Shown one piece after another: positions 18,078-56,971 of a stretch of DNA of 64,000 bases. Positions within the stretch are counted from its first letter, which is position 1. Each line of letters opens with the position of its first letter. The stretch is from Rickettsiales bacterium (lineage in GTDB: Bacteria; Pseudomonadota; Alphaproteobacteria; G027485855). The stretch lies in NCBI GenBank assembly GCA_027485855.1, contig JAIXQD010000021.1:178700-242699 (forward strand). Reading direction: 5' to 3'. A program made the position numbers and the translations under genes. The notes beneath the pieces were generated by a model. The model was given only the letters and a program-made list of their open reading frames with translations. It did no database searches and was not told the DNA's origin.

Positions 18078-18100
18078 CCCCTTAAACAAAGGAATATCTT

Positions 18101-18388: not shown

Positions 18389-18422
18389 TCAGCCTCACCC
18401 ATACAACCAAAGGAACATCATC

Positions 18423-18671: not shown

Positions 18672-18676
18672 TAGAT

Positions 18677-24294: not shown

Positions 24295-24743
24295 TGCCCA
24301 TCAGCCATCATATTCAAGCATTGCAGATTTGTTTGCGCTTGTTGAGAATATACACCAGTACAGGCGGTCAGCAAAAGACGGGGGCAGATTATGACCGTGA
24401 TATTTATCATTTCTATACTTTAATATTTTAAAACGACTTTGTAAATTTACAAATTCTGTGTAACTGAGAATCGGATTTGGATTTTTAATTAAGCTGTCTC
24501 TGATGGGATGGTCTGCCTGAAAGCGCCAAGACAAGCGCGCTACCAAGCTTACTGATTAAAAAGCTCCGTACCAACAAGATCACAAAATAGGTTTCTGTAG
24601 GTCTTGGCTATACATTTCCTGTCCCACAGCATTATCAATAACATATCTTTTGAGCAATCATTTTATTGAGATTATCTCATGCTAAAATGGATGTTGATGG
24701 TTTGCCTTAAGGGGAAAAGATATTTTTCTTGTTAAAAAGGGCA

Positions 24744-26039
24744 CTACCTTTGCCAACCATCAATTTTAAAAACACGTTCTAGGAGCTTGCGTTCTGGCCC
24801 GCCAGAAGCAGGGGCAAACCAAACCTCAAACCGAGCGGCATAATATTGCTCCCAGTCGCCTTCGTAAATCATAATATGAGAGTTCGATAGAAACTGCTCT
24901 TGGTTATTATCCGACCAGCCTATCCATTCACTGGAGTCTTGCTTTAAATCATCTTCAGAAAGAGGTGTGTTTTTTGTAACTTCAAAAGCCTTAAGATAAA
25001 CCATGCCTCGTTCCCCAGGATTAGCGCGGATATAGACATCATATATCCCATTTGACCCGGAAATATCTAACGAGGGGGGCCCCATGCTGATGCTGCTTGC
25101 AGGAAGCATGCTTTTTATTTGCTCCCAATCACTGAGAGTTAAAAAGCGTTTAAATTCTTGGTTGAGGTATGACAGGGATGCTTCGGTAATGCGGCGCTGT
25201 TTGGCAGAAGACTGCTCCATAATCTCAACTAATAAATTATTTTCCTTTATACTCACATAACTCCCATACTGCGCAAATTGTCTACGCTCTTGCCTCAAAA
25301 TAACATCTTGTTTCTGACCACAACGCAACAAGGTGACACCTACATTACCAAAAGAAGAATCGGCTGAAAAACTTATAGTTGTTCTGGTCTGAAACTGCTT
25401 GTCTGGCCCACTCTGCCATCGTTTGAGGCCAGAACTTGTGTAATTAGCATGAAGTGTCGTTTGCCAGATGCCATCCACAACCCACCGCCGCGTAGCGAAA
25501 AGCGTGCCGTGCCGCGTATATAAACGCCAGGCAGGATGAGCGGCAAGATATCGCAGCAGATTTTCACTATTATTTAGGTAGGCTGTAACAAGGCTGGACA
25601 TATCGCATGATATGGTCGCGTTATCGCTGCCAGAATTATTCAGGCTATTTAAAACTGTTTGTTGAAAAGGGTCGTCAGTAACGGCGGAGATTGTTCCTTT
25701 AATATTCCGCGTGTTTACGACTTCGATATCTGTGGGTATGGTAAGATTCTTTGCAAAATCATCACCACTTGGGCCGAATAACCACATAAAAGTAAAAACC
25801 ACGGATAACACTTTGAGTAAAATAAGAAATGAAAAAAGATTAATTGCAGATTTTAGCCATCTTTTTTTAAAAAGATTAACGATTGAAACCACAAATACGC
25901 CTGCAAGAGCAATATTCACCAGTAATAAAATGCCTGAATTCATAGGCCCTATAAATAGATAAGCAATAGCCAGTGAAACTGTGATGACTGATGGTATCCA
26001 AAAACTTGAATTATAGGCCTTCCAAAATCTTTTAATCAT
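24744..26039 (-). CDS. Hypothetical membrane-anchored protein (3 N-terminal TMs, large soluble domain)
   Basis: 431-aa ORF, AGGAG RBS; C-terminal YEGDWEQYYAARFEVWF. Confidence 0.75.
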   Translation of the reverse strand: MIKRFWKAYNSSFWIPSVITVSLAIAYLFIGPMNSGILLLVNIALAGVFVVSIVNLFKKRWLKSAINLFSFLILLKVLSVVFTFMWLFGPSGDDFAKNLTIPTDIEVVNTRNIKGTISAVTDDPFQQTVLNSLNNSGSDNATISCDMSSLVTAYLNNSENLLRYLAAHPAWRLYTRHGTLFATRRWVVDGIWQTTLHANYTSSGLKRWQSGPDKQFQTRTTISFSADSSFGNVGVTLLRCGQKQDVILRQERRQFAQYGSYVSIKENNLLVEIMEQSSAKQRRITEASLSYLNQEFKRFLTLSDWEQIKSMLPASSISMGPPSLDISGSNGIYDVYIRANPGERGMVYLKAFEVTKNTPLSEDDLKQDSSEWIGWSDNNQEQFLSNSHIMIYEGDWEQYYAARFEVWFAPASGGPERKLLERVFKIDGWQR

Positions 26040-26330
26040 ATTCGGCTCCTACATCTTAAGTCTTCAAAATTCCATTCGCAGTTTTTTTTCAGACTTTGAA
26101 TAGGGGGTTCATTGCACAAGCTGTTAGCTAGAAAACTCCGTAGCAGTACTGAGCCCGCATATATTTCTTCGAGTTTTAGCTTATGTTCTCTGCAAGCCGC
26201 TTTGTTCATCAATATATAAGTAAGGCGGTGGTTTTGAAAGATATTGAAGTTATGTTGCGCCTCCGACGTCCAAAATGCTTATGCGCATTTTGTCGAACCC
26301 GCGACGCTTCTTTCCTATCCAATCCCAGTC

Positions 26331-26365
26331 ATAAATAAAGGGGCCAAAAAGGCCCCTTTATTTAT
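26331..26365 (-). terminator. Hairpin terminator after tRNA-Ser
   Basis: Perfect 15-bp inverted repeat ataaataaaggggcc-aaaaa-ggcccctttatttat. Confidence 0.8.
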
Positions 26366-26458
26366 GGCGGAGACGGAGGGATTCGAACCCTCGATACAAG
26401 TTTAAGCTCGTATAACGGTTTAGCAAACCGCCGCCTTCAGCCACTCGGCCACGTCTCC
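26365..26458 (-). tRNA. tRNA-Ser(GCT)
   Basis: GGAGACGTGGCCGAGTGG...GCGGTTTGCTAAACCGT...long variable arm...GGTTCGAATCC...CGTCTCCGCCA. Confidence 0.97.
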
Positions 26459-28801: not shown

Positions 28802-31800
28802 ATGAATCAGGATCAAGATAAACTGAACATCACTCTTAACTATCGCAAAGGCGGCGTCATTGAAGCCCAAAAATTTGCGGCCACTAACCCGCTTTTAGTC
28901 AGCTATAACGCTGGCATAGAGCAGGATAATAATAGCAAGCGCACATTTATCTCGCTGGCCTCGCTTTTGGCCAACAGCATCAGCGCTGATAGCAGCTATA
29001 TTACCCGCAGCATTGAAACGGCAGGTGGCGATATTGCCATCTTGCGCCGCACACTTGAAGCCATCAATGCCAACATTCCGCCTGCCAAAAGCGGGCAAGC
29101 CCTTGATGAGGGCTGTCACGCACCAATTTTTTTAGCCGCACAAGCCGCCGCCGAAAAAATGGGCGATGAGTTTGTCAATACCGACCATCTTATTCTGGCA
29201 CTGCTCAATGGCGTTGAGGCCGAGCACCCAACTGCTGTTAATCACGCGGCACAGCTGAGTGCGGCTTTAAGCAATGCCGGCCTTACTGCTCAATCCTACA
29301 AAAAAAGCGTGCTTGATTTACGTCGCGGGGCGCGCATTAAAACACAATTTGACGGCGAAAATTTTGGCACGCTTGGCCTTTATACCAAGCTGATTGCCGC
29401 AGCAGGTCAAGAGCGCACGCCCTTTATGAACCGCAGCGAAGAAATGCGCCGCATTGAAAAGCAAATTGCTAAAACTGAGGGTAATTCGGTTTGGCTGACG
29501 GGCGAGTTTGGCGTTGGCAAAACTGCACTGGTTGAAGCTTTTGCCGCACGCTTAGCCGATGGCCAAACCCCGCGCCAACTGGCAGGGCGCAAGCTGCTTA
29601 AGCTTGACCTCAGCCGCTTTATTGCCGGCGCTGGCAATGAGCTAGATACACGCTTTAAGGCGCTGTGCGATGAAGCCGAAGCCGATGGCGATAAAATTCT
29701 TTATATCGACGAAATTGAGCGCCTGTTGCTTGATAATGGTTCGGTGCGCGCCAGCTTAGCCATTATTTTAAACGATGTGGTCAGCCGTGGGCAGTTACCC
29801 ATTATTGCCACCTCAGACGGTGGTCGCGCCGAAGTTTTAAGCACGGCTGACCAAAGCCTGTTCAAAAAATTTGAGCGTATTCGTTTGCAAGAGCCAAGCG
29901 ACGATTTAGCCCGCGAGATGCTTTATGCTCACCGCGACAGCATTGCTGCACGTCACGGCGTTGAGATTGAAGACGAGGCTATTGCCCGCGTTATCAAACA
30001 AACCAAGCGCTATCAGTCGGATGAAAAATTCCCCAAAAAAGCCATTGATGCGCTTGATGAGGCCGCGAGCCTTGTGGCCATCCGTGCCGAGCGCCCCGAA
30101 GTGCTGACCAGCAAAGATGAGCAGCTCATTCTTATGGTGGCCGAGCTCGACAGCTTGAAAAACAAAAGCGATGATGCCAGTGCGCAGCGTCAAAAAATAC
30201 TGCAAGAGCAATTTGATAAGCTGGAAGATGAGCTCACTGCGCTCGAACAGCAGTGGGAAAATGAGCAAAGCCTGCGCATGGCTGTCGAAACCGCTCGCAG
30301 CAGCTTGCAGCAATCAGAAAATAAATTGCAGCAACTGAAGCAAGAGCGCGAGCAGCTTGGCCAAGGCCAGCAAGTGCTGCAAGCGGCAAATGCCAATGGC
30401 GACAATCATCAAGTGGCCGCGCCCGTCAGCAAAGACATTGTGGAAAAGCGCCAGCGCATCGAAGCCGACATCAAGCGCGCTGAAATGCGTGATTTACCCG
30501 CCCAACGCACTGCGCTGAGCGAAGCTGAAAAAAATCTGGCCGCACTTGGCGATAATCGCTTGGCGCAATTAGTGGTAACGCCAAAAGATATTGACCAGGC
30601 CTTAACGGTAGCAACCGGTATCCCCATTGGTCAGGGCGATGATGAAGCCAAATATGCGCCAGGCGCTATTGAAGCCGCACTTGAAAAACGCGTGGTGGGC
30701 CAAAAGAAAGCTGTCAGCATTGTGGCCGAAGGTATTCGTCGTGCTAAAAAGGGCCTTAATGATGCAGGCAAGCCGCTGCTGGTGGTGTTTTTTGCCGGCC
30801 CCTCGGGCGTTGGTAAAACCGAATTAGCCAAAGCCACCGCCGAGTTTGAATTTGGCGGCGAAGATCGGGTTATTCGTTATGATATGGGCGAATATACCGA
30901 GCCACACACAGTCTCGACCTTGTTGGGCGCCCCTCCTGGCTATCAAGGCAGCGAGCAAGGCGGCAAGCTGGTCAATGACATCAATAATGCGCCCTACTCG
31001 GTGCTGTTATTCGATGAAATTGAAAAAGCGCACCCCAGTCTGTTTCCTATTTTGCTCAAGCTGCTCGATGAAGGCAAAGTCACTGACCGTCAGCACAACA
31101 CCGCTGATGCGCGTAACTGCATTATCGTCATGACCTCGAATGTGGGTAAGGAATATTTCGAGCAATTTAAAAATGGCAGTATTAAAACGCCGGAAGAGCT
31201 TAATCGTTTGGTCAAAGAAGCCTATAATGAGCGCTTCCCCGTTGAATTGCGTGGCCGTATTAGCTCGGGCTTCACCATCTTTAATTCGCTCGACCCCAAA
31301 GTGACGCGGATGATTATCCCCATTCAAACACGCAAGCTGAATAAGCTGATGGATGAGCGCCAAGTGAAAGTGGCCCTCACCCCCAGCGCCGAAGATTGGT
31401 TGGCCAAATATGGCTACGACCCCAATTTGGGCGCCCGTCCGCTGAATAATTTGTATCGGGATATTATTGTCAATGGCGTAGCCAAGCTGGTCACCGATGG
31501 CATGCTGCTGCCCGGTCAAGATGTGAGCGTGGATGTGCAACCACAAAAAGTGACAGTGCAAAGCCACATCACCTCGGCCGAGGAGATCATGAAAATTGTT
31601 GATGGTCTGGACGAGTTCAAACCCACCATTCAAGAGCTGCAAGAGCAATTACAAAAACTTTGCAGCAAATTAAGCTATGCTGAATTGACACAAGATAACC
31701 CGCCCGTAGAAGAGATGCACGAAATTGAAGTGCCATGGCCTACGCTTAAAGTGAGTGACCGCTTGCGTCCGGCGCCCGCAATTAACATTGCCAACGCTAA

Positions 31801-31885
31801 AGCCGATATTACCGGCCAAGGCAACAAAGGGCCAGAACGCCCCACAACGGCGCCCATCACAAGCAACGCCGCCACTTTAGGCTAA
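28802..31885 (+). CDS. Divergent ClpB-like double AAA+ ATPase, copy 1
   Basis: Clp-N (GDEFVNTDHLILALL), GEFGVGKT, IDEIE, coiled-coil M domain, GPSGVGKTE, GAPPGYQG, FDEIEKAH, GARPL. Confidence 0.9.
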   Translation: MNQDQDKLNITLNYRKGGVIEAQKFAATNPLLVSYNAGIEQDNNSKRTFISLASLLANSISADSSYITRSIETAGGDIAILRRTLEAINANIPPAKSGQALDEGCHAPIFLAAQAAAEKMGDEFVNTDHLILALLNGVEAEHPTAVNHAAQLSAALSNAGLTAQSYKKSVLDLRRGARIKTQFDGENFGTLGLYTKLIAAAGQERTPFMNRSEEMRRIEKQIAKTEGNSVWLTGEFGVGKTALVEAFAARLADGQTPRQLAGRKLLKLDLSRFIAGAGNELDTRFKALCDEAEADGDKILYIDEIERLLLDNGSVRASLAIILNDVVSRGQLPIIATSDGGRAEVLSTADQSLFKKFERIRLQEPSDDLAREMLYAHRDSIAARHGVEIEDEAIARVIKQTKRYQSDEKFPKKAIDALDEAASLVAIRAERPEVLTSKDEQLILMVAELDSLKNKSDDASAQRQKILQEQFDKLEDELTALEQQWENEQSLRMAVETARSSLQQSENKLQQLKQEREQLGQGQQVLQAANANGDNHQVAAPVSKDIVEKRQRIEADIKRAEMRDLPAQRTALSEAEKNLAALGDNRLAQLVVTPKDIDQALTVATGIPIGQGDDEAKYAPGAIEAALEKRVVGQKKAVSIVAEGIRRAKKGLNDAGKPLLVVFFAGPSGVGKTELAKATAEFEFGGEDRVIRYDMGEYTEPHTVSTLLGAPPGYQGSEQGGKLVNDINNAPYSVLLFDEIEKAHPSLFPILLKLLDEGKVTDRQHNTADARNCIIVMTSNVGKEYFEQFKNGSIKTPEELNRLVKEAYNERFPVELRGRISSGFTIFNSLDPKVTRMIIPIQTRKLNKLMDERQVKVALTPSAEDWLAKYGYDPNLGARPLNNLYRDIIVNGVAKLVTDGMLLPGQDVSVDVQPQKVTVQSHITSAEEIMKIVDGLDEFKPTIQELQEQLQKLCSKLSYAELTQDNPPVEEMHEIEVPWPTLKVSDRLRPAPAINIANAKADITGQGNKGPERPTTAPITSNAATLG

Positions 31886-31897: not shown

Positions 31898-34800
31898 ATG
31901 AACCAAGGTCAAGAACCAACTTTTGATGTGCTGCTCAACGACCGCAGCACTAATGTGCCCAGCAAATATGGGGTGAATATGACGAGCGCTTTGCAGCGCT
32001 ATTATAACAGCGGTCTTGAGCAAGATGCTCAATCTGCACCAGGCACACAAGGCAAAGATTATAGCAACCTTGCTTCTATTTTATTGGCCGCGCTCGCCAG
32101 CGAAGAATCTTATATCTCGCGCGCAATCAGCAAAGCGGGCGGTGACCGCACCGTGCTTGTACGTGGCCTGCAGCAAGTTTGGCAAGATATCCCCAAGAGC
32201 GCCGATGGTATCGTCAAGGATTTAGGCTATCTTGCGCCAATTTTTGCTGGTGCAGATAATGTACGCTTAACCATGGGTGATAAATTTCATAATACCGATC
32301 ATCTGGTAGCTGCCCTGCTGCAAGGCGAATATCAGCCAAGCTCAACGGCAATGACTGCGCATTATACCAAGCTGCAAGAGGCTTTTGCCAATGCCGGTAT
32401 TGATGCCGATATTTGGCAAAAAACTATCGAAGAAATGCGCCATGGTGCACGCATTGGCAGCCGCATGGATGGTGAGCTATTTGATAGTCTTGGTCTTTAT
32501 ACCAATGACATGGCCATACTGGCCGTCGAAAAGCCAGAGCCGGTATTTTTAGGCCGCCGCGCCGAGATTGACCGTATCGAAGCACAATTAGCCAAAGCGC
32601 AAGGCAACTCGGCTTGGCTGACGGGTGATTTTGGGGTGGGCAAAACCGCCATTGCCGAAGCCGTGGCCGATCGGATCAGCCTTGAAGAATCTCGCGCCGA
32701 ATTGCGCGGTCGCGTGGTGCTGCGTCTTAATATGAGCAAGCTGATTACCGGACAAGCCGGTGACCCTGCCGACAGATTGCGCGCCATTTGTGACGAAGCT
32801 GCGCGCGATGGCAATAAAATCCTGCTGATTGATGAAGTAGAGCGCCTGCTGCTTGATAATGGCGCTATTCGTGCCAATGTGGCCGTGGTGCTCAATGATG
32901 TGCTCAGTGCGGGCCGCTTGCCCATGCTGCTCACCTCGGATGGCGGGCGGGCTGATGCGCTTTACAGCAATGATGCCAGCCTCTTTGATAAACTAGCGCG
33001 CATTGATGTGCGCGAACCCAGCGCTGAACTTGCCACCGAAATGCTTTATGCCCACCGTGAGCGCATTGAGCAGCTTTATGGCGTAACCATCACCGACGAA
33101 GCCCTGCAACGGGCCGTGGCGCAAACACAAAAATACCAAGCCGATAAGCGCCTACCCAAAAAAGCCGTTGATGCGCTAGAAGCCGCAGCCAGCCAAGTGG
33201 CGCTTGAAAAAGAGCGCCCCGCGCAATTAGTCAAGCTCGCACAAACCCAAGAGAACATCGAAGCCGAGCTGCGTCGTTTAAATGTGCGGCAAGATGCCGC
33301 GGCTCTACAGCGCAAAGCCGAGCTCACCCAGCAACAAGCCGAAGCCGTGAACAGCGAAGCCGAGCTAGAAGCCAAATGGGAGCAAGAGCTTGAAATTTAT
33401 AAAGCCGTGCAGCGCGCCCAAGAAAATATTGTGGCAGCAGAAGACAAGCAATATGAGCTGCGCACGCAAATAGAGCAGTTGGCCGGCGCACAACAACAAA
33501 TGCAGCTGGTAACGGATGGCAGCGAAAGCAAAACTATCAGCACCGCTGCGCCCAGCCTTGCAACCCAGCAGCGCGAATTAAAAACCCAGCTCAAAACGCT
33601 TGAGCGCAAATTGCCGCAATTGCAGCAGCAGCTCGAACAGGCGCAAAAAGCCGCCGCCGACTATGCCCCACATCGCTTGGTTGATGGCACAGTCAATGCG
33701 GTGGATATTGATGAAGCTATCGAGCGCAGCACCGGCATTCGTATTAAACCCGAAGAGACCGATAAATTTGCCAAAGGCAAAATTGAAGCGGCCTTGCGCC
33801 AGCGTGTTGTGGGCCAAGATAAAGCCATTGCCATTGTGGCGGGCGCGGTGCGTCGTGCCGCCATGGGCTTACGCAAAAATGGCAAAACCTTAGGCGTGTT
33901 CTTTTTTGCGGGCCCGTCGGGCGTTGGCAAAACCGAGCTGAGCTTGGCTTTGGCCGAGTTTCTTGGTTACAACATGCTGCGCTATAATATGAATAACTTC
34001 ACCCAAGCGCACACGGTGGCAACCTTGCTGGGCTCGCCCCACGGCTATGAAGGCGGCGGTGGCCCCTTGGTGCGCGACATTAAACAGAACCCTAATTCGG
34101 TTATTCTGCTGGATGAATATGAAAAAGCGCATGCTGATTTCAGCAAAATATTGATGGACCTGTTTGATACCGGCCGCACCACCGATAACCGCAACAACAG
34201 CGCTGACGCCAGCAACTGCTATATCGTCATGACTTCAAACATTGGCGAAGATTACTTCCGCGACTATCGCGATGGCGTGATTAAAACCGAAGCCGAATTG
34301 CTTGATGAAGTCAAACGCGCCTATGAAGAAAAATTCCCAGCGTCGTTCCAAGGGCGCGTTGAGAATTTTATTATCTTTAATAATCTTGACCCTGCGGTCA
34401 CGCGCGAAGTTGTGCCGCTGCAGCTGCGCAAACTCAACGAGCAGTTCAAAGATAATAAGCTCGACATCACCATGGACGCCGCAACCTCGGCCTGGCTGGC
34501 CGAACATGGCTATGACCCACATAAAGGCGTGCGCCCCTTACAAAACTTGTTTGATAAAGTGGTGGCCAATGGCGTGAATGATTTATTCATGGATGGCGAT
34601 TTATTGCCCGGCCAGCAAGTGAGCATTACGCTGCAACCGCAGACAGTGCAAATTCAAACACACGCCAGCGCCGAAGATGTTGATGCACGCATTTTCAGCC
34701 ATAAGATTTTTTACCCAACGCTGGCGCAAGCCGAAGCTGAGTTGCAAAAACACTTCAGCAATTTAAGCGATGCCGATAAGAGCCGTGGTGCTGCGCCAGA

Positions 34801-34960
34801 GGCGATGCATAGCGTAGAAGTCATGTGGCCAAGCTTTACAATTACCGACAAATTAGCCGCAGTGCCCGCTATTGAGCTTGGCACACAAGAAGAAGGGCCC
34901 GTACGTCGGCCCAAAGCTGCGGCTGCTGGTGGCAAGCCCGCACCACTAGCCAATAGCTAA
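31898..34960 (+). CDS. Divergent ClpB-like double AAA+ ATPase, copy 2
   Basis: Same architecture: GDFGVGKT, IDEVE, M domain, GPSGVGKTE, GSPHGYEG, LDEYEKAH, GVRPL; 12 bp after copy 1 with GGGAG RBS. Confidence 0.9.
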   Translation: MNQGQEPTFDVLLNDRSTNVPSKYGVNMTSALQRYYNSGLEQDAQSAPGTQGKDYSNLASILLAALASEESYISRAISKAGGDRTVLVRGLQQVWQDIPKSADGIVKDLGYLAPIFAGADNVRLTMGDKFHNTDHLVAALLQGEYQPSSTAMTAHYTKLQEAFANAGIDADIWQKTIEEMRHGARIGSRMDGELFDSLGLYTNDMAILAVEKPEPVFLGRRAEIDRIEAQLAKAQGNSAWLTGDFGVGKTAIAEAVADRISLEESRAELRGRVVLRLNMSKLITGQAGDPADRLRAICDEAARDGNKILLIDEVERLLLDNGAIRANVAVVLNDVLSAGRLPMLLTSDGGRADALYSNDASLFDKLARIDVREPSAELATEMLYAHRERIEQLYGVTITDEALQRAVAQTQKYQADKRLPKKAVDALEAAASQVALEKERPAQLVKLAQTQENIEAELRRLNVRQDAAALQRKAELTQQQAEAVNSEAELEAKWEQELEIYKAVQRAQENIVAAEDKQYELRTQIEQLAGAQQQMQLVTDGSESKTISTAAPSLATQQRELKTQLKTLERKLPQLQQQLEQAQKAAADYAPHRLVDGTVNAVDIDEAIERSTGIRIKPEETDKFAKGKIEAALRQRVVGQDKAIAIVAGAVRRAAMGLRKNGKTLGVFFFAGPSGVGKTELSLALAEFLGYNMLRYNMNNFTQAHTVATLLGSPHGYEGGGGPLVRDIKQNPNSVILLDEYEKAHADFSKILMDLFDTGRTTDNRNNSADASNCYIVMTSNIGEDYFRDYRDGVIKTEAELLDEVKRAYEEKFPASFQGRVENFIIFNNLDPAVTREVVPLQLRKLNEQFKDNKLDITMDAATSAWLAEHGYDPHKGVRPLQNLFDKVVANGVNDLFMDGDLLPGQQVSITLQPQTVQIQTHASAEDVDARIFSHKIFYPTLAQAEAELQKHFSNLSDADKSRGAAPEAMHSVEVMWPSFTITDKLAAVPAIELGTQEEGPVRRPKAAAAGGKPAPLANS

Positions 34961-45838: not shown

Positions 45839-46014
45839 TTTTATCTCCTAAATCGCCGTGACTATAGCAATCTTATTTCAAAAATGCAGCCGTTAACGCA
45901 TCTTGGTAATTATTGTTGCAAAATCGGCACAATCGTTATTTTCCAATATGTTTCAACTTGTTATCGCCTATAAAGCGCGCTATGTAAGAGGGGCATTTTA
46001 TGGAGGTGCCGCAT

Positions 46015-46881
46015 ATGACCGAGCATAAACCAACCCCGGATGTGGAAGCCCGTCACCGCAGTGCAACCACATTATCTGACGGCATTGCTTTAGGCCTTAC
46101 CCGCGCACTACGCTTTTTTGCCGATACATTTTTTGCGCAGCGCTATGGGCACCGCGCTGTTGTGCTTGAAACTGTCGCCGCCGTGCCCGGTATGGTGGGT
46201 GGCATGTTGGCGCATCTGCGCTCTTTGCGGCGCATGGAAGATGATAAGGGCTGGATTAAAACCATGCTCGACGAAGCCGAAAATGAGCGCATGCACCTGA
46301 TGACTTTTGTCGCCATTGCCAAACCCTCTATTTTAGAGCGCGGCCTCATTTTAGTCGCTCAGGGCGCTTTTTTTAACGCCTATTTCTTGTTGTATTTGCT
46401 TGCCCCGCGCACAGCGCATCGGCTGGTTGGCTATTTTGAAGAAGAAGCCGTTAAAAGCTACACACAATATCTTGAAGCTATTGATAGCGGCAAAATTGCC
46501 AATGTGCCCGCGCCACAAATTGCTATCGACTACTGGAAATTACCCGAAGACGCCACGCTGCGCGATGTGGTGCTGGTTGTCCGCGCCGATGAGGCCGGCC
46601 ATCGGGATGTAAACCATGCTTTTGCCGATGAGCTTTGCGCCAAAACTGCGCGCCAACGCCACAAGGAAGACCAAGCCAAGCTGCTTAAAATGGGCAAAGC
46701 TAAAATCGCGGCTGCCGTTGCGGCTGCCAACACTGCTGGTAACAATGCGCCCAACGCAGCACCCATTGCCGTGCCGGTGCTCACGCCTGCCAACCAAAGC
46801 GTGGAACCAACCATTGCAGCGCGGCCAACATCGCCCGCAACACCAGTTTCTGTCGCAAAGCCGCAATCGCCATCGCTTTAA
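46015..46881 (+). CDS. aox: Alternative oxidase with Ala/Pro-rich C-terminal extension
   Basis: [38 protein letters not shown] di-iron motifs; GGAGG RBS before ATG 46015. Confidence 0.93.
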
Positions 46882-48904: not shown

Positions 48905-49906
48905 TTAACGCAGCCTTTTATGCGTCGCCAAAAGTGGCCCGCCATTAAGCAGGCGTGCATGTTGCTGATCAATATAGGTGGCCAGCTGCCCTATGCGGCG
49001 CTCACGGATGGTATTGCGAAACGCATCGCCAAGGTTATTGGGCTCGGTAATAAAAGATTTTGCCATAAGCTGTTCTTCAAGCAAATTTTGGTGAATAACC
49101 GCCGTTAGCCCCATGGCTAAGGCCGCCGACGCGCGACTGCCAACCGCCTGCTCTGACAAATGCAGCATGCCCTCAAGCGATTCTTCAATCGAGCCGCCAT
49201 GAACCGTGGTTATAACCAAATGCCCCGTTGTGGCCGCACGCAAAACTTGCGCTGCGGCATCTGGCGTGCGGATTTCGCCCACAAAAATATAGCGCGGGCT
49301 CCAACGCAAGCTACGCTTCAGCATCGTCGCCCATTCATGATCTTCGCTAATCTCAACTTGGTAGCAAAAACCATTGCTGGCATGCCGCCCTTCAAGATTA
49401 AACTCAACCGGATCTTCAACCGTAAAAGCCACATTGCCATAACGCTGCAAATAATCGCAAAGTAAGGCACAAGCCGTGGTGGTTTTGCCGTGACCCGTTG
49501 GCCCCGCAATAATAATCAGCCCATCGCGCACACCAAGCTGCTGCAAATGTGGCAACAAGGCGGGGTCAAAACCCAAATCTTCTAGGGCGGGGGGGCGCTC
49601 TGGGATGCGCCGCAGCACCACCCACTCTTTGCCGCTGGCCATGATAATGCGTGAGCAACGCATGCGCATCGTGTCGTATTCTAAGGTCGACTCAGCCCCG
49701 CTATGCTCGGTTTGTAGGCGCAGGCGGATTTTTTCAACGTCTAATTGATATTCGCTCGGCACCTCTCTGTTGCCGCCTTCGCGGCGCTCACGCCCCCGTG
49801 GACGGTAATGCGCGGCCTCTTCATCATCGAGGCGTATATATAAATCGGTAAAATTGAGCTCAGATAAAGGGGTATGCTGTGGGGTATGCTGTCGTTTTTC
49901 TGCCAT
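48905..49906 (-). CDS. PilT/DotB-family secretion ATPase
   Basis: GPTGHGKTT, TVEDPVEF, VGEIR, TGHLVITTVH, AFRNTIRE (AIRNLIRE-like). Confidence 0.85.
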   Translation of the reverse strand: MAEKRQHTPQHTPLSELNFTDLYIRLDDEEAAHYRPRGRERREGGNREVPSEYQLDVEKIRLRLQTEHSGAESTLEYDTMRMRCSRIIMASGKEWVVLRRIPERPPALEDLGFDPALLPHLQQLGVRDGLIIIAGPTGHGKTTTACALLCDYLQRYGNVAFTVEDPVEFNLEGRHASNGFCYQVEISEDHEWATMLKRSLRWSPRYIFVGEIRTPDAAAQVLRAATTGHLVITTVHGGSIEESLEGMLHLSEQAVGSRASAALAMGLTAVIHQNLLEEQLMAKSFITEPNNLGDAFRNTIRERRIGQLATYIDQQHARLLNGGPLLATHKRLR

Positions 49907-50041
49907 AGTGCGATACCCTCTTTTGAAAAAATTCAGACTTTATCAACTAAAGCGGTTTAGCATAAAAGTGATAAATATTCCGTCAATGCTGGGCAAGGTC
50001 AATTGACCCCGTCCGGCAAAATCCTCGAGGGGGGAATGCTG

Positions 50042-50212
50042 ATGGGTTTAAGCTTAACTACTGCCGGCTTTACCGCAACCCATATCGGGTCATCGGCCAC
50101 GCCCGCGCGCAAAGCGGTTGAAACACCTGCAGCAGAAAACACCACGCCCGCCGCGCCACAACAACCTTCTGGCTATTGGCGGCGCACCGGCGGCTTAAAC
50201 ATTAGTATCTAA
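50042..50212 (+). CDS. Small hypothetical protein ending GGLNISI
   Basis: GAGGGGG RBS upstream; fits between PilT-like gene and dotA. Confidence 0.5.
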   Translation: MGLSLTTAGFTATHIGSSATPARKAVETPAAENTTPAAPQQPSGYWRRTGGLNISI

Positions 50213-50218
50213 TTTATA

Positions 50219-53200
50219 TTATCTTTCACGTTCATCGCGACCGCGCCCGCCGATATCTGGCGGCACATGACGCTGATTAGAAAGATCGGCCGCTTGCTTT
50301 GCAGCATCACTGGCTCTATCTGCTTCACGGCCAGAGCGCTCAGCGCCACGCTCAGCTCTGCCGGCATCTTCACGCGTAGAGTCTGTCGATACATTGGGGT
50401 TGCTCGGAGTGCCCGCGCCCGCTGGCGAGGGCGTGCCCAAGCCACCCGTGCCGCCACCCGTGCCACCGCTGCCACCACCACCTGTGCCGCCCCCCATCAA
50501 ACCCATCGCAGCGCCGCCAGCGCCACCACCACCGGTGCCACCGCCACCGCCGCCAGTGGTGGGCATATCGGGGCTATCATTATTATTTGGGCCCCTGTTA
50601 TTTGGTCCGCCGCCAGAGCCAGGTGGGGCATTACCGCCGCCAAAGCCAAGCATGGCCGGCACCGAGCGCCCCAAGCTGCTGACATCATTAATGGCCCCAG
50701 GCAGAGCCTTGGTGACAGCACCCAACTGACCACCCAACGTATTGGCATACATAACGCCAGCAACGCTGTTGATATCATGCTGCGGGGCAATACTCTTGAG
50801 ACTTTCGCCGCCAATCCACTTCATCGCGGCATCGGGAATGACCTCAATCATATCAAGGCATTTCAACACCAGCCAGTAGCCGATAAATAAATAGAAGATC
50901 GAGTAAATAAAGCGCGTCAGCACATTGGTGTTAACGCCCGCTATGTGGCTATCCAAAACCACTGTTTCGTAAAACATGGTGAGAAAGCTCAGCACGGTAT
51001 TGGCCGCTAAAATGGCTACCACCAAGCCCAAAATAGTCATGATGGGGCGCACAAAAGTCGAGAAAATCAGAAAATAGCCGCGCCGCGCATAATCACCCGG
51101 AATGCCACCGCCTTTGGGGTTGATATGCGCCAAGGCCAATAATGGCAAGCACACAACCGCCTCCATCACATTGACCACCCAGCTTAAAATACCAAAAATA
51201 AATTTGATAAAAGGCAGCAAGGGCAGCAAAAAGCCGACCAAGAGCGACGCGGTTAAACCGACAATAATGATAAACCACAAGATAGATTTAACGAGGTTTT
51301 TAATCCCATCTGGCATAGAGGCCAATGCCGTGCTGGCCAGCGCCAACCCAACACCCTGACGCACCGACACATCTTCAGACACTGCGCCAAGCCCAACAAA
51401 GCCCGCCCAGCGCGCCCAAAAATTAACGTCCGCACCCGCAGCAATGGCCATAAGGTTGATTGACCAATAAAATTTCTCCATGCCGATTTGCACAAATGAG
51501 CCAAACGCATCACCCGAGGAGAGCGTTAGCACATTGCTGTAAAAACTATTCTCTAGCCATGCGCCAATACCGCCCGCTGTTGCACCAGGGGCGCCGGGCG
51601 CTGTGGCATTAGCCAGCTCTTTTTGCCAAAGGCCGGTTTTCATATCGTTTGTCGAGAGCGCCGTCACCACCGCTTGCATAGGGTCGCTCGGTGTTTCAGT
51701 TTCGCCGCGATCGGCAGGGTTGATGCCACTTGGCGCATCAACATTGATAAAATTAAGACTGCTAATCACCGTTTTGGCAATGTCGGCCGCGGCATAACCA
51801 TCGCCGACGAGTTGTGCCGTATCAGCGGGCTGCGGCGCGATATTGACCACTTGCGTGAGCAAATTTTGCCGGCGCGATAAAATGTTAAAATAAGCACCTG
51901 CCTCAACCCAGCCTAGTTTTTTGTCACTATTCACCAACTGGTCTTCCGATACTGTGCCTTGTGCCGTGGCAAGCGGCTCAAAGTAAGTGCGGGCACGCAA
52001 AGCAATTTCGCGGTGATAGTCATCAATCAGCTGATAAAAATTAGTGGCCAAGCTTGCCGGCGGGCGCTGTCCGGCATTAGCAGAGTCGCTGGCAGGGTGG
52101 AAATAACTTGCCACAGTGGCACCGGCTTGAAACGCCTGCTGCAAATATTGACTGGATGAGGCTTGCTGTATCGCATTAAAGCCGCGCAGGGTTTGCGCCA
52201 GTGTGTCATTGCCTGCACCTGCTGTGCTGATGTTATTCATCATCACCCGACCACAAATTGGCTGCGCGCCCTGCTCACGCACAACATAGGGCATAATCAG
52301 TGGCACCTGACCGGTATTGTCGGAGGCCAGACCCGGCGGCAACTGACTTAAGCCCAGTTGATAAAGCTGCGGCGGCTCTATACCCGTCACTTGTGATTGA
52401 TAAATGTGTGATTGATAACAAACGCCAATACGATAGGCCGCCAAAAATGCCTCGCTCGAGCGCGGAATAGACGGCATGCTGATTTGTGTGGTTTGGTTAC
52501 TGGCGGTGGTGAATTTATCCCAAGCATAGCTGGCAAAACCCGAGCCCCACTCGGCCACTTTTAAAATAACATACTGCCCCGAATTCAGCCCGCTGGTCAT
52601 TGGCACTAAAAGGCCAATCGCCACAACCAGACGCAGCGGCCCCCAAATTTGATCGGCTTCGCCAAAGGGTTTGCCCTTATGGGCGGTTTCAGCAATCATC
52701 ACCACAAGATGATAAAGCAAAATAGCCGAGCCAATCACCAACATGCCAACGCTAAATGTGCGCAGCAATTCTTTGAGCGCTAACTGAATGGCATTACCAA
52801 ACATGCCCAAATCATCGATGCGGGCAAATTCTGGACTAAGCGCAAATAAATGTGACAACCAGCGCGAGCCACCATCTGTGGGGGCAGGCGTAAACATATC
52901 CGGTGAGGCGGGCGGGGTTTGCGCTTGCGCACTGCCTGCTAAAATAGAGGTTATCAATAAAACAAACACCAGCATAAAGCCCAAGCAAAGTGCGGTTAAA
53001 ATACCTAAAGCCAAAAGCGGAAAAATCTGCTCATGGGTTTTGGGCGTAAAGCGCCAACCATCGAGCAGCACACCGAATAAACGTAACTGCGCTGTAGGAC
53101 GGCTTTCTAAATAATCTTTTGGCAAAGCCCGAAAAGAAATCAGCACCAAAGCTAAGTTCAGCACCAGCATTTGCCAGGCTTCAAGAAAGCTGCGCACCGA

Positions 53201-53290
53201 ACGGCCCAAGCCAAATTGTGGGATAAGGCCAAAAAATGACCGCTTGGGGCTTGGGGCTGAAGCGTTTGACTTGGGTGGTTCTGCGCTCAC
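50219..53290 (-). CDS. dotA: DotA/TraY family type IVB secretion membrane protein
   Basis: ETAHKGKPFG, WGPLRLVVAIGLLVP, GW.EAGAYF, LPLLPFI.F..G...W...V.EAV..PL.ALAH, RP...ILGL; Gly-rich tail. Confidence 0.85.
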   Translation of the reverse strand: MSAEPPKSNASAPSPKRSFFGLIPQFGLGRSVRSFLEAWQMLVLNLALVLISFRALPKDYLESRPTAQLRLFGVLLDGWRFTPKTHEQIFPLLALGILTALCLGFMLVFVLLITSILAGSAQAQTPPASPDMFTPAPTDGGSRWLSHLFALSPEFARIDDLGMFGNAIQLALKELLRTFSVGMLVIGSAILLYHLVVMIAETAHKGKPFGEADQIWGPLRLVVAIGLLVPMTSGLNSGQYVILKVAEWGSGFASYAWDKFTTASNQTTQISMPSIPRSSEAFLAAYRIGVCYQSHIYQSQVTGIEPPQLYQLGLSQLPPGLASDNTGQVPLIMPYVVREQGAQPICGRVMMNNISTAGAGNDTLAQTLRGFNAIQQASSSQYLQQAFQAGATVASYFHPASDSANAGQRPPASLATNFYQLIDDYHREIALRARTYFEPLATAQGTVSEDQLVNSDKKLGWVEAGAYFNILSRRQNLLTQVVNIAPQPADTAQLVGDGYAAADIAKTVISSLNFINVDAPSGINPADRGETETPSDPMQAVVTALSTNDMKTGLWQKELANATAPGAPGATAGGIGAWLENSFYSNVLTLSSGDAFGSFVQIGMEKFYWSINLMAIAAGADVNFWARWAGFVGLGAVSEDVSVRQGVGLALASTALASMPDGIKNLVKSILWFIIIVGLTASLLVGFLLPLLPFIKFIFGILSWVVNVMEAVVCLPLLALAHINPKGGGIPGDYARRGYFLIFSTFVRPIMTILGLVVAILAANTVLSFLTMFYETVVLDSHIAGVNTNVLTRFIYSIFYLFIGYWLVLKCLDMIEVIPDAAMKWIGGESLKSIAPQHDINSVAGVMYANTLGGQLGAVTKALPGAINDVSSLGRSVPAMLGFGGGNAPPGSGGGPNNRGPNNNDSPDMPTTGGGGGGTGGGGAGGAAMGLMGGGTGGGGSGGTGGGTGGLGTPSPAGAGTPSNPNVSTDSTREDAGRAERGAERSGREADRASDAAKQAADLSNQRHVPPDIGGRGRDERER

Positions 53291-53380
53291 GCAATATCCT
53301 AATCTTTGTGCAAATGGCTATACATCAAAGGACGAATGTTAACAAAACGGTATTAGTTGCACAATACTACTGTCATTTAA

Positions 53381-54166
53381 ATGGCAGATGGTCAAACAAG
53401 CAAAGATGAATTAAGTTTTGTTGTGTCCAACGCAAATACCACAAAACTCGGCTTAACCCAGCATGATTGGCTGAAAACTTTGGCATTATTGCTAATGTTG
53501 GTCGATCATTTGGGCTTTTTTGTGTTTATGCAAGAGCCGTGGCTACGCGTTATTGGCCGTGGAGCCGCCCCCATATGGCTCTTTTTGCTGGGCTATTCAT
53601 TGAGCCGTAAACTCGATGCTTGGCTGTGGATTTATGGCCTCGCACTTATAGCCGTGTGGGGTAGTTTGGGCCTGCCTTTTGGGGCGCTAAATATTCTTTG
53701 GACGATTATTATAACAAGGCTGTTTATGCAGCTTTGGCTGAAATATGACGGCCAGCTAAATTGGCGAATAGGCTTGTGGTTACTGGGTTTGGCCACCCTC
53801 ATACAGCCCACCAATGATATTTTTGAATATGGCACGCTAGGCCCCATTTTTGCCCTTAGTGGCTATTATGTGCGACAAAAACCACAGCAAATTAGCGGTG
53901 CGCTCATTTTGGCTTTTGCTTTATCGGCGCATTTTTGGCTGGCCGAACAGGTTTTTGCCTTCAAAGATGCTCATCTTTATGGATTATTGCTGTTTTTAGG
54001 CATAATCGGGCTTGTGCTTTATAATTTTAAGGCGGGCGAGTGGCAGGTTAAAATGACTCAATCGCTTTATGGGCTGTTTAAAATGGGTGGGCGATATAGC
54101 GTGCATTTTTACTTCTGGCACCAGATGCCCTTGCTTTTATTGCTATTTTACACATTTAAATTATAG
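53381..54166 (+). CDS. TraX/TrbP-type pilin acetyltransferase-like membrane protein
   Basis: DWLKTLALLLMLVDH, RVIGRGAAPIW, NILWT, EYG, FYFWH pattern of the TraX family. Confidence 0.72.
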   Translation: MADGQTSKDELSFVVSNANTTKLGLTQHDWLKTLALLLMLVDHLGFFVFMQEPWLRVIGRGAAPIWLFLLGYSLSRKLDAWLWIYGLALIAVWGSLGLPFGALNILWTIIITRLFMQLWLKYDGQLNWRIGLWLLGLATLIQPTNDIFEYGTLGPIFALSGYYVRQKPQQISGALILAFALSAHFWLAEQVFAFKDAHLYGLLLFLGIIGLVLYNFKAGEWQVKMTQSLYGLFKMGGRYSVHFYFWHQMPLLLLLFYTFKL

Positions 54167-54301
54167 GATTTTAAATCGCGGCTTGTTTGCTGCAAATTGT
54201 TGTGCATAATTAATAAACTATTCAGCACCACATGTTGAAATGGATAAAGGGCAACATATAATTGCCCCAAATATCCGATAGATTTTATTTATAGACAATG
54301 A

Positions 54302-55288
54302 ATGGATTGCATGCCGCTTAAAAAGTCGCCTTTGCTTTATAACAATAGCCACAAGTCAAAATGTGGCCTTGAAGATGTGTGGCTGCTCACCTTAAGCTTT
54401 TTAGCGCTTTTTGCTTTTCCTGACATTGCCTTTGCGCAAAGCGATAATATCGGTAAGGCCGTAAAGCTGAGCGCCGATCAGATTGGCACCTTGGTCAATA
54501 TCGTCAATATTATGGCTTATACGGCGGGCGCCATGATGTGTGCCGGCGCGCTCATGAAGCTAAAAAAACATGCTGAATCGCCGCAAAACTACCCGATGTC
54601 GGCGGCCTTATGGCGCCTTGGTGGCGCGGCATGCTTAATGGCGCTGCCTTGGGCGACAAGCTTTGTTGTGGAAACAGTTTTGGGTGGCAATGCCAGCAAA
54701 GGCGGCGTTACCGGCACACCAGGTAAAGTCACTGCCGCTGTTGCGGGCGAGGTGCCTGGGCTTGATGTTTTGCTGCAAAACTTTGTTGGCAATATACAGC
54801 AGCCTATTTTATGGCTGTTAGGCGTTGTTTGCTATTTGCTGGGCGCCATCATGCTGATGCAGGGCATTTTGGCCATGTCAAAATTTGGCCAAGACCAAAA
54901 AGCCACTACCAACGCCATCATGACCAAAATGGTTTTTGCGGCGGTGCTTTTAGCGGCGCCACAAGCTTTTACCGCTATTACCGGCAGTATTTTTGGCGGC
55001 GGCAATTTGCCAACTAACCTAGTTTTATCTTATATGCCCAATAGCGGCGATGGGTCGAGCCAGTTTAATGCGGCGCTTGGGGCTGCACTTAATTTTATTC
55101 AGATTATTGGCTATATCGCCTTTGTGCGTGGTTGGTTTGTGCTGCGCAAAGCCATTGAGGGCGACGGGCAGGCCAGTAAAGCCGGCGGCATTACTCATAT
55201 TGTGGGCGGCGCTTTGGCGGTTAATATTCATGCCACCTTAAATGCTGTGCAAAATACTTTGGGTGTTAATCTGGTGACTGTGACCTAG
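54302..55288 (+). CDS. IcmC/DotE (TraQ)-like protein with an N-terminal IcmD-like repeat
   Basis: C-terminal IQIIGYIAFVRGWFVL...GITHIVGGALAVNI matches IcmC as recalled; first repeat KLKKHAE...ALPW mirrors the next two genes; start uncertain. Confidence 0.7.
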   Translation: MDCMPLKKSPLLYNNSHKSKCGLEDVWLLTLSFLALFAFPDIAFAQSDNIGKAVKLSADQIGTLVNIVNIMAYTAGAMMCAGALMKLKKHAESPQNYPMSAALWRLGGAACLMALPWATSFVVETVLGGNASKGGVTGTPGKVTAAVAGEVPGLDVLLQNFVGNIQQPILWLLGVVCYLLGAIMLMQGILAMSKFGQDQKATTNAIMTKMVFAAVLLAAPQAFTAITGSIFGGGNLPTNLVLSYMPNSGDGSSQFNAALGAALNFIQIIGYIAFVRGWFVLRKAIEGDGQASKAGGITHIVGGALAVNIHATLNAVQNTLGVNLVTVT

Positions 55289-55385
55289 CTTATAAGTGTA
55301 AATTCTGTGGACGAAAATAAAGATTCTATTTATCATTGTGTTTTAGTATAAGTTTCTGAAATAAGCTTTTGGACGGAGGGATCCT

Positions 55386-55769
55386 ATGAATATGTCAAAA
55401 ACGACAGCACAAAATTACCTATTCGGCGCACTCGCAGCGGCTGTCGTATTTGCCGCCATGCCGTCTGATGCTTTTGCCACTGTGACAAACCTTGCTGGCA
55501 TGCAAAATCAGGTTAAAACTCAAGCTGGTGGTCTGACCAATATCGTTAGCATGGTTTGCTACACTGTTGGCACCATGCTTTCTGGCCTTGGCGTTTATAA
55601 GCTTAAAAAACACGCCGAGAATGCCGCGCAAGTGCCGCTTAACCAGCCACTCACTGCCCTTGGCGTTGGCGCTGGCTTGCTGAGCCTGCCATGGATTACC
55701 AGCTTTGCCACAAGCACTGTTGGTACAGGCACACAGAAAGCGGCCTTTACTAACTTCAACGCGTTCTAA
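55386..55769 (+). CDS. IcmD/DotP (pilin-like) protein, copy 1
   Basis: Signal-like AFA|T, two hydrophobic helices flanking YKLKKH.EN..QVPL; GGAGG RBS; position between icmC and icmJ. Confidence 0.72.
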   Translation: MNMSKTTAQNYLFGALAAAVVFAAMPSDAFATVTNLAGMQNQVKTQAGGLTNIVSMVCYTVGTMLSGLGVYKLKKHAENAAQVPLNQPLTALGVGAGLLSLPWITSFATSTVGTGTQKAAFTNFNAF

Positions 55770-55820
55770 AGCTTAAAAAAAACCATCATCCATTTATTAT
55801 AACCATAGGGAGACATACCA

Positions 55821-56195
55821 ATGAAACAACAAACGACTAACTACCTTTTCGGCGCACTTGCAGCGGCTGTCGTATTTGCCGCCATGCCGTCTGACGCTTT
55901 TGCTACTGTGGCAAACCTTGCTGGCATGGAAAATCAGGTTAAAAGCCAAGCCGGTGGTTTGACCAATATCGTCAGCATGGTATGCTACACTGTTGGCACC
56001 ATGCTTTCGGGCCTTGGTGTTTATAAGCTTAAAAAACACGCAGAGAACGCCGCGCAAGTGCCGCTTAACCAGCCGCTCACCGCCCTTGGCGTTGGCGCTG
56101 GCTTGCTGAGCCTGCCTTGGATTACCAGCTTTGCCACAAGCACTGTTGGTACAGGCACACAAAAAGCGGCCTTTACTAACTTCAACGCGTTCTAA
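55821..56195 (+). CDS. IcmD/DotP (pilin-like) protein, copy 2
   Basis: Nearly identical to copy 1; GGAG RBS. Confidence 0.72.
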   Translation: MKQQTTNYLFGALAAAVVFAAMPSDAFATVANLAGMENQVKSQAGGLTNIVSMVCYTVGTMLSGLGVYKLKKHAENAAQVPLNQPLTALGVGAGLLSLPWITSFATSTVGTGTQKAAFTNFNAF

Positions 56196-56227
56196 ATTTT
56201 AATGCCTAAACCAAGCAGATTTTAGCT

Positions 56228-56971
56228 GTGAAGGCATTTTTAGATATTGCTCTCGCCGTCAACCGTCCCGTTGACGGCGAGACTGTTTCTGGCGGGCCCT
56301 CAGGTCTTTTGGGGGCTGGCCTTTTGGGCGGCAATAAAGGCGCCAAGCGCAGCGAATGGCCCAAAATCAGGGCCGAGGTTTTGCGCCGCGATGATTTTAG
56401 TTGCCAGTTTTGTGGCTTCCGCTCGGAGCGCTATCAAAAAGTTATCCCGCTACCCGGCAGCAAAGCTATTTTACGCGCCGATAAATTAGTAACGGCCTGT
56501 ATTTTTTGTGAGCAATGCTTTGATATTGAAAGCGTTGGCCAACATAATGCGGGCGTTTTGCTATGGCTGCCTGAAATAACCCAAGCACAACTGCATCATA
56601 TTGCGCGGGCTATTTATGTTGCCCGCATTGCCGATGAAACTGCACAAAGCAAAGCTGTGCGCGATGCGGCCACCACGGCCTTCGACCAGCTATTATCACG
56701 CCGCAGCGAGTGCAAACGCCGCCTGGGCACCGATGACCCGCTGGTGCTGGCCAGTGTGTTGCAAGAGGGGCTTGATGACAGCCAATATGTTGAGCGCAAA
56801 GCCAAGCTAGAAGGTGTGCGCTTGATGCCGCTGCCCAAACGCATGGTACGCAGCAAAGAGGGCGAGAGCGACCAGTTCCCTGAAATTATCAGCTATTATG
56901 CCAGCCTTGAGGGCGCCTATGCCGCCTACCCCTTCGATAGCTGGGCCGAAGCCTTAAACACGGCCGCTTAA
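56228..56971 (+). CDS. icmJ: IcmJ/DotN-like Zn-binding (HNH-fold) protein
   Basis: VLRRDDFSCQFCGF, LVTACIFCEQC, LLWLPEITQAQLHHIAR, EGVRLMP. Confidence 0.82.
   Translation: MKAFLDIALAVNRPVDGETVSGGPSGLLGAGLLGGNKGAKRSEWPKIRAEVLRRDDFSCQFCGFRSERYQKVIPLPGSKAILRADKLVTACIFCEQCFDIESVGQHNAGVLLWLPEITQAQLHHIARAIYVARIADETAQSKAVRDAATTAFDQLLSRRSECKRRLGTDDPLVLASVLQEGLDDSQYVERKAKLEGVRLMPLPKRMVRSKEGESDQFPEIISYYASLEGAYAAYPFDSWAEALNTAA

Follow-up and report, generated by a model that had tools for sequence, protein, structure and literature searches.

A TraX-family gene within the icmC-icmD-icmJ block of a dispersed type IVB secretion system in an alphaproteobacterium

Introduction

What might a TraX-family enzyme do inside a type IVB (Dot/Icm) secretion locus, and does the machine encoded there serve its own cell or the transfer of plasmids? 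This question is raised by a 64,000-nucleotide stretch of contig C10 (the window, below) from the genome of an uncultured alphaproteobacterium, assembled into 34 contigs totalling 2.37 Mb (completeness 97.8%, contamination 9.5%), in which a traX-like gene stands at the head of a row of icmC, two copies of icmD and icmJ. TraX of the F plasmid is the sole characterised member of its family and modifies a type IV secretion system (T4SS) pilin, according to the parts of the source available to us (PMC4027160). An earlier note on this DNA had proposed a domesticated type IVB system, with a PilT-like motor in the locus, that builds an acetylated, possibly retractile, IcmD-based pilus for contact with prey or host cells. 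The reading that we favour, with a probability of roughly 0.55, keeps a part of this proposal: the genome encodes a complete, scattered type IVB machine, TraX would acylate mature IcmD and/or IcmC, and the machine would be a vertically inherited, contact-dependent translocator, with the PilT-like ATPase a separate matter.

Results

The earlier note had named seven genes in the locus, and all seven open reading frames (ORFs) are present at the positions listed here. The row traX-icmC-icmD-icmD-icmJ lies on the plus strand, divergent from dotA and the PilT-like ATPase gene on the minus strand.

48905..49906, minus strand: PilT-like secretion ATPase, 333 amino acids (PF00437, 113 bits; cut-off 24.9)
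50219..53290, minus strand: DotA/TraY, paralog 1 of 3, polytopic membrane protein of 1023 amino acids (TIGR04346, 235.9 bits; cut-off 100)
53381..54166, plus strand: predicted TraX-family membrane acyltransferase, 261 amino acids (PF05857, 55.5 bits; cut-off 25)
54235..54262, plus strand: promoter-like site between traX and icmC (TTGAAA, 16 bases, TATAAT), a match to the consensus alone at 11/12 positions
54302..55288, plus strand: IcmC/DotE (IncI TraQ)-like protein, 328 amino acids (NF033883, 42.5 bits, under the cut-off of 80)
55386..55769, plus strand: IcmD/DotP (IncI TraR)-like protein, copy 1, 127 amino acids (134 bits to the family profile)
55821..56195, plus strand: IcmD/DotP-like protein, copy 2, 124 amino acids, 94% identical to copy 1
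56228..56971, plus strand: IcmJ/DotN, 247 amino acids (NF038221, 97.9 bits against a cut-off of 100)

The presence of TraX in this block recurs in other genomes. Gene neighbourhoods were collected with two profiles, one built from 30 IcmJ homologues, which gave 253 loci in species-representative genomes, and one for the TraX subfamily (8-row alignment), which gave 205 loci; neighbourhood counts are taken from the best 80 of each, and many of the IcmJ loci are cut by contig ends. Besides the window, three of these loci have TraX within the icm block:

This genome: traX-icmC-icmD-icmD-icmJ
Locus L100: icmC-traX-icmD-icmD-icmJ-icmB
Locus L121: icmD-icmJ-traX
Locus L243: icmC-icmD-icmD-icmD-traX-icmJ-icmB

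TraX shares its strand with the icm genes in 4/4 of these genomes, in four different positions, and in a tree of IcmJ (a single short protein) this genome, L100 and L121 fall within one large clade and are not sisters. The earlier note had offered traX-icmD synteny in relatives as a check on its proposal: the pairing does recur, in L100, L121 and L243, and it is rare and differs in position. The type IVB regions of Roseomonas and Acetobacter plasmids have no TraX. In a literature search, no paper was found that connects TraX-family enzymes with type IVB systems; the recurring association between the two is the new point of this work.

TraX and the type IVB machine also go together at the level of whole genomes. 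Both families were searched in the same 400 genomes of the class, of which 31 are DotA-positive (one DotA-only genome, G040, is unpublished) and 369 DotA-negative. TraX is found in 10/31 of the former versus 7/369 of the latter (odds ratio 24.6, Fisher p 2e-8) and, counted by GTDB family, in 7/21 versus 6/187 (p 5e-5; 15-fold), figures that overstate independence because the genomes of the class are kin. On a SecA tree the genomes with both proteins are dispersed, and four sister pairs consist of a double-positive and a DotA-only genome; the scatter and these pairs fit an accessory gene that is often lost.

The subfamily to which the window's TraX belongs occurs in seven DotA-positive genomes of the sample and in one, G293, that is negative for both DotA and DotH. 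In G293, traX lies 0.8 kb from, and divergent to, a 132-amino-acid ORF close to TrbC/VirB2 pilin clusters of the Atlas (score 0.92; 28/30 hits with the same family set), and this pilin-like ORF heads a VirB cluster in which VirB4 (PF03135, 9e-30) and then VirB9 (TrwF, 1e-19) could be recognised:

C2:37001-57000 (locus L153), 9964-19016: VirB-type cluster of G293 with a VirB2-like ORF, VirB4, a polytopic protein, a VirB8-sized protein, VirB9 and a proline-rich, VirB10-sized protein

A pilin-modifying family thus stands repeatedly beside icmC and icmD, and also beside VirB2 in a type IVA system, which provides independent comparative evidence for pilin-like handling. Taken together, the recurrent but rare synteny, the class-wide co-occurrence with DotA and the VirB2-adjacent copy in G293 make a link between TraX and IcmD probable.

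What kind of substrates could IcmC and IcmD be? To our knowledge, no pilus is known for Dot/Icm systems. In an alignment of 34 IcmD members, an Ala-x-Ala signal-peptidase site is invariant or nearly so, and is followed by about 20 variable residues and then by two hydrophobic helices, between which lies a conserved K-x-H-A-E-N-P loop. This layout of a signal peptide and two hydrophobic helices with a short basic loop is that of the TrbC/VirB2 pilins of type IVA systems, and 13/34 members match the TrbC/VirB2 model at E <= 0.1 (best 1.6e-4), a likeness joined by the same-subfamily TraX beside the VirB2 gene of G293; 16/34 match DUF6750. Neither of the window's own copies reaches the cut-off of any family; copy 2 has a weak TrbC/VirB2 match (PF04956, E 0.0073), and the Atlas clusters nearest to it are named IcmD (0.95) and virB2 (0.94), to be taken as leads only. 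IcmC appears to consist of a signal peptide and three tandem IcmD-like hairpin modules, with the IcmD profile matching residues 30-132 (8.5e-23), 159-234 (9.6e-7) and, weakly, 268-324 (0.045). A complex prediction for TraX with mature IcmD, run without controls, scored 0.00. IcmC and IcmD are best described as predicted Sec-exported, VirB2-like helical-hairpin membrane proteins, a description already suggested in print: their IncI counterparts TraQ and TraR are called VirB2-like in the available parts of two papers (PMC4027160, PMC6112013). In the available part of a cryo-tomography preprint, DotE/IcmC and DotP/IcmD are listed as lying almost wholly within the inner membrane and are not placed (10.1101/312009).

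The window's TraX is the single copy in its genome. Its kinship with F TraX is evident from PF05857 and from direct tblastn similarity, and both are encoded with T4SS pilin-type genes; the two differ in that the window's protein, a predicted acyltransferase, is under the cut-off of the F-type equivalog (TIGR02755, 32.8 bits versus 149.35) and has IcmC and IcmD, not TraA, as its neighbours. In a tblastn search of 72,556 plasmids there were 468 records with a match, of which all but one are enterobacterial. Those listed, 30 of the 468, are all from Salmonella or E. coli, 25/30 being annotated as traX pilus acetylase, with 28-33% identity over 42-49% of the query. The traX of IncI and IncM plasmids is named by its position in the alphabet, a name that does not imply PF05857. 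Among 19 members of the subfamily, residues D42, G59, P64, Y150, G151 and H247 are invariant and H43 and R60 nearly so, with a conserved Asp-His pair in the first helix. A shared-word search found five relatives besides the window's own protein, and each of five Micavibrio-like genomes searched has a TraX-family match.

The remainder of the machine is found elsewhere in the same genome. The type IVB core is complete and split over at least four chromosomal pieces, each flanked by housekeeping genes. The earlier note's picture of a domesticated, chromosomal sub-locus is borne out by this non-mobile-looking context, and the genome search for dotB, C, D, G, H, L and O that it had suggested finds all of them, along with the core proteins DotI and DotM. 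Outside the block described above, the pieces are:

C18:26332-29614: icmL, icmK and icmE
C18:85914-93372: icmB, dotM, a gene for a 197-amino-acid protein, and a gene for a TrbC/DotL-type coupling protein
C34:176259-178769: dotD-dotC-dotB, in that order
C34:211455-214352 and C10:122829-125363: further DotA paralogs (three in the genome, dispersed)

Family searches of the genome matched DotH (PF12293, 248.8 bits), DotI and IcmL, and DotG/IcmE by its C-terminus (146 bits, under the equivalog cut-off). IcmB/DotO (C18:90388-93372, 994 amino acids) matches its homologue on a Vibrio megaplasmid at 2.6e-135, while no NCBIfam model reached its cut-off for this protein. For the coupling complex, the TrbC/DotL-type protein (372 bits) and DotM (190.5 bits) are both under their equivalog cut-offs, and DotN is encoded in the window as IcmJ/DotN, a cytoplasmic zinc-binding part of this complex whose cysteines C59, C62, C91 and C94 are invariant in the 30-homologue profile alignment. 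DotB, DotC and DotD match Legionella adelaidensis proteins at 6e-109, 9e-44 and 1e-20. The L. adelaidensis record NZ_LR134433.1 is labelled 'plasmid 24', yet its Dot/Icm region I is surrounded by genes for ribosomal protein, tRNA ligase and cell division, so that the record looks chromosomal. An IncI/R64-like type IVb pilus cluster with genes for a pilin, a platform protein, an assembly ATPase and a secretin adjoins dotB (C34:166949-178769), and the order of dotD-C-B and this cluster is the same as on the Vibrio vulnificus megaplasmid. Queries from the VirB cluster of G293 detected no VirB-type system in this genome, so that type IVB is its sole detected T4SS.

Two pairs of a relaxase (PF03432) and a VirD4-type coupling protein are present in the genome, one at C9:448642-451415 and the other in an element at C10:108780-122537 (pair at C10:108.8-112.9 kb), which also carries a QatC-like gene, a DNA methyltransferase and a tyrosine integrase and directly adjoins DotA paralog 3. 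Both relaxase matches fall outside the window, within which there is none, in line with the earlier note, which had seen no relaxase in view. These elements are small, have their own coupling proteins and lie at least 118 kb from the locus; they may be mobilisable, borrowing a chromosomal mating pore.

How widespread is this machine? A large protein collection contains 112 homologues of IcmJ, with identities of 33-57% once its own record is set aside. Among the best 80 of the 253 IcmJ loci, nearly all titles name Micavibrio, Pseudobdellovibrionaceae, Alphaproteobacteria or Rhodospirillales; one of these loci is on the complete chromosome of M. aeruginosavorus HCB189. In these 80 loci IcmD directly precedes IcmJ in 69 and IcmB directly follows it in 62, and icmL, icmK and icmE are all present in 49; this neighbour order indicates that the ancestral arrangement was the Legionella order icmL-K-E-G-C-D-J-B, which has been split in this genome. 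A DotA or PilT-like gene lies within 10 kb of IcmJ in 0/80, and DotA alone as a query found no relative in the species-genome scan. In a single-gene tree of SecA, this genome groups with G064, G298, G155, G315 and G175 (support 1.00), apart from Micavibrio proper. The nearest relatives of the Icm proteins are in Micavibrio and allied metagenome-assembled genomes (MAGs), and the contact with prey that the earlier note had envisaged fits this distribution. The system is of a known kind and has already been noticed in Micavibrionales, seven of which receive a passing mention as carriers of this system type in the available part of a marine survey (PMC9418006).

Compared with the Legionella Dot/Icm system, the machine shares DotA, B, C, D, G, H, I, L, M, N and O and IcmC/IcmD, as well as the dotD-C-B order and, in the relatives of this genome, the icmL-K-E-G-C-D-J-B order. 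It is different in that the cluster is divided into four pieces or more, that three DotA genes are present, and that a TraX-family gene stands in the predicted icmC-D-J operon; IcmS, DotU, IcmW, IcmX and IcmV were not detected here, and the machine belongs to an alphaproteobacterium that is an ally of an epibiotic predator and no intracellular pathogen. Legionella has one DotA. Three Micavibrio genomes (G061-G063) have DotA in three to four tandem copies, and paralog 1 in the window ends in a glycine-rich tail.

The PilT-like ATPase is a different case. Its gene follows dotA on the same strand after a gap of 312 bases, and its best NCBIfam model is PilT (TIGR01420, 128.9 bits, under the cut-off of 319.1), followed at a distance by the DotB model (58.9 bits; cut-off 463.3). 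With this weak score, and with the genuine DotB encoded at C34:176259-177434 (6e-109 to L. adelaidensis DotB), the window's ATPase can be ruled out as DotB. The genome has a paralog at C31:131458-132417, between an amidohydrolase gene and pyrE; a Dot/Icm block suspected around it was ruled out, as its surroundings (ileS, ribF, lspA, pgi, pyrE) are housekeeping genes. A search of five genomes for close orthologs (46-55% identity) turned up four copies in G064, two in G065 and none in the other three; the copies lie among housekeeping or type IV pilus genes, with 0/6 adjoining Dot/Icm genes. The best match outside the lineage is a small ATPase encoded after the major pilin in a Vibrio type IVb pilus cluster (1.8e-32). 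Membership of this ATPase in the Dot/Icm system is therefore doubtful; more probably it is a lineage-specific PilT paralog serving type IV pili, and its position beside dotA is probably incidental.

As the earlier note had held, the locus sits between housekeeping genes, with an ArsR regulator and a cation-efflux protein on the left and HPr, EIIA-Man, a ChvG-like kinase, a ChvI-like regulator and PckA on the right. The G+C content across the locus is 0.47-0.55, in surroundings of about 0.52.

Elsewhere the window holds several features of separate interest, listed here:

3-13754, minus strand: giant ORF of at least 4584 amino acids that runs off the window and whose sole Pfam signal consists of many weak repeats resembling the type III secretin N0 domain (52 bits summed, none significant singly)
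24001-26458: low-G+C stretch (0.41) with a 431-amino-acid ORF without Pfam family beside a tRNA-Ser gene, which may be a small island
28802-31885 and 31898-34960, plus strand: two tandem ClpB-like double-AAA+ proteins of 1027 and 1020 amino acids
37951-43483, plus strand: cassette for a type I-secreted protease, namely a subtilase with P-domain and RTX repeats, then an ABC exporter and an HlyD-type protein
46000-46881, plus strand: alternative oxidase (PF01786, 295.7 bits), an enzyme uncommon in bacteria

Discussion

Vertical inheritance and a function in contact-dependent translocation, not in plasmid transfer, are most likely for the machine encoded by this genome, and the role most likely to fall to TraX, by analogy with the F plasmid, would be the acylation of IcmD and/or IcmC after signal-peptide cleavage, as an accessory, non-essential step. 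The chemistry would probably be N-terminal acetylation, as for F TraX on F-pilin, and the VirB2-like hairpin design of IcmC and IcmD is what makes them the probable substrates. From their sequence features, IcmC and IcmD would be inserted by Sec and then cleaved after Ala-x-Ala. The polytopic TraX could next acylate the new N-terminus, or another group facing the periplasm, after which the IcmB/DotO-energised machine would take up the modified hairpins as a channel lining or a short filament, and the whole apparatus would act at cell contact, plausibly with prey. Of the acetylated IcmD pilus put forward in the earlier note, the link between TraX and IcmD is one that we, too, infer to be probable from synteny and co-occurrence; the retraction by PilT is the part that fell.

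A number of observations weigh against this reading, besides the kinship of the sampled genomes, and several of them favour another explanation, namely that TraX acts as an acyltransferase of the envelope in general (O-acetylating a glycan or lipid, for instance) and has no secretion-system substrate, and that it came to lie beside the icm genes as a side effect of the rearrangements that split the Dot/Icm cluster. Synteny is the exception: TraX is near IcmJ in 2/80 of the best IcmJ loci (L100 and L121), and type IVB genes are near TraX in 1/80 of the best TraX loci (L243), the other 79 having no T4SS gene within 10 kb and many of them tandem TraX genes (two or three copies are frequent in Micavibrio-like MAGs, loci L194-L267). 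Three Micavibrio genomes have TraX in the interval from priA to the atpH-atpA-atpG operon, where this genome has no TraX remnant; to judge from these neighbourhoods, the subfamily normally sits elsewhere in the radiation and seems to have been drawn into the icm block here. PF05857 genes of other subfamilies in G158 and G113 have plainly housekeeping neighbours, and one TraX homologue also carries the Acyl_transf_3 family PF01757. The Dot/Icm cluster of this genome is indeed fragmented. The machine can do without TraX, which is absent from 21/31 of the DotA-positive class genomes, much as F TraX is dispensable for its own machine according to the available part of the source (PMC4027160). The residue that follows the predicted cleavage site of IcmD is variable (T, S, F, Q, G, N, A or D). 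The pilin-like nature of IcmD itself is questioned by several results: it scores 16.9 bits with the TrbC/VirB2 model, under the cut-off of 27.9; the AlphaFold2 model of copy 2, a helical hairpin with helices 33-75 and 83-108, is of low confidence (predicted local distance difference test, pLDDT, 55); a Foldseek search of the PDB with this low-confidence model gave nothing at E <= 0.001 and generic hairpins only; and a profile search of PDB sequences with IcmD found no pilin. As for an effector-translocating role, the IcmS (PF12608) and DotU (PF09850) models had no match in the genome, PF12608 having matched no control genome either, and phmmer searches with L. adelaidensis IcmW, IcmX and IcmV found no match, which divergent forms could escape; the gene set is therefore the core common to IncI conjugation and Dot/Icm, and the cargo cannot be read from it.

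A general envelope acyltransferase is nevertheless the less convincing account, possible but on the unlikely side. It would leave to chance four different same-strand placements of TraX, all within a block of about 3 kb in genomes of about 2 Mb, and the enrichment of TraX in DotA-positive genomes of the class (25-fold, or 15-fold by GTDB family). It also sits uneasily with the position of TraX beside a VirB2 pilin gene in the sole carrier of the subfamily that lacks a type IVB system, and with the T4SS pilin that is the substrate of F TraX.

It is improbable that the locus is instead a conjugative or mobilising apparatus, in which an IncI-like machine with a type IVb thin pilus would transfer DNA, for example the two relaxase-bearing integrative elements, with IcmD as the conjugative pilin and TraX as its acetylase. 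The shared IncI and Dot/Icm core, the unmatched IcmS and DotU models, and the pilus cluster next to dotD-C-B, as on the Vibrio megaplasmid, could all be read in this way, as could the two relaxase and coupling-protein pairs, the second with an integrase and beside a DotA paralog. The IncI1 (R64/ColIb-P9) and IncM systems, of the mating-pair formation class MPF-I, indeed have the same core, with TraQ/TraR (= IcmC/IcmD) as VirB2-like putative pilins and a type IVb thin-pilus cluster beside the tra genes. In contrast to those plasmids, no cognate relaxase or oriT stands beside the genes here, which are chromosomal, scattered over at least four sites amid housekeeping genes and conserved across the lineage. 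The relaxases lie in their distant elements with coupling proteins of their own, whereas the cluster is kept in Legionella order in at least 80 species-level genomes of one radiation, which points to vertical inheritance of a cellular function.

The earlier note's full model, in which the PilT-like ATPase beside dotA retracts an extracellular, acetylated IcmD pilus, is the least probable of all: the position of the gene, the PilT-type C-terminal motif AFRNTIRE of its product (compare AIRNLIRE) and the restriction of close orthologs to G064 and G065, both with TraX inside the icm block, are outweighed by the true DotB elsewhere in the genome, the paralog beside pyrE, the six copies of G064 and G065 away from Dot/Icm genes, the lack of a PilT-like or DotA gene near IcmJ in all 80 loci, the best outside match in a type IVb pilus cluster and the lack of any known VirB2-type pilus that uses a PilT-like motor.

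We thus return to a scattered but complete type IVB machine with TraX as an accessory modifier of IcmD and/or IcmC. A bolder form of this reading, which we regard as speculative and rather unlikely, would hold that type IVB systems have a VirB2-type filament or channel lining made of IcmD after Sec processing, to which IcmC would be a relative with three fused modules. In the wide Micavibrio-like radiation a dedicated TraX enzyme would N-acylate its subunits, and this acetylated IcmD structure would be the long-sought conduit of epibiotic predators into their prey.

What could this mean for the biology of these bacteria? The association with TraX bears on the unsettled role of DotE/IcmC and DotP/IcmD, and hints that they may be processed like conjugative pilins. 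The 2011 genome paper on M. aeruginosavorus ARL-13 reports, in its available part, no evidence for type III or type IV secretion (PMC3189940). Set against this, the whole cluster is present on a complete Micavibrio chromosome and in dozens of allied genomes, which makes the type IVB machine a candidate for the prey-attack apparatus of epibiotic predators.

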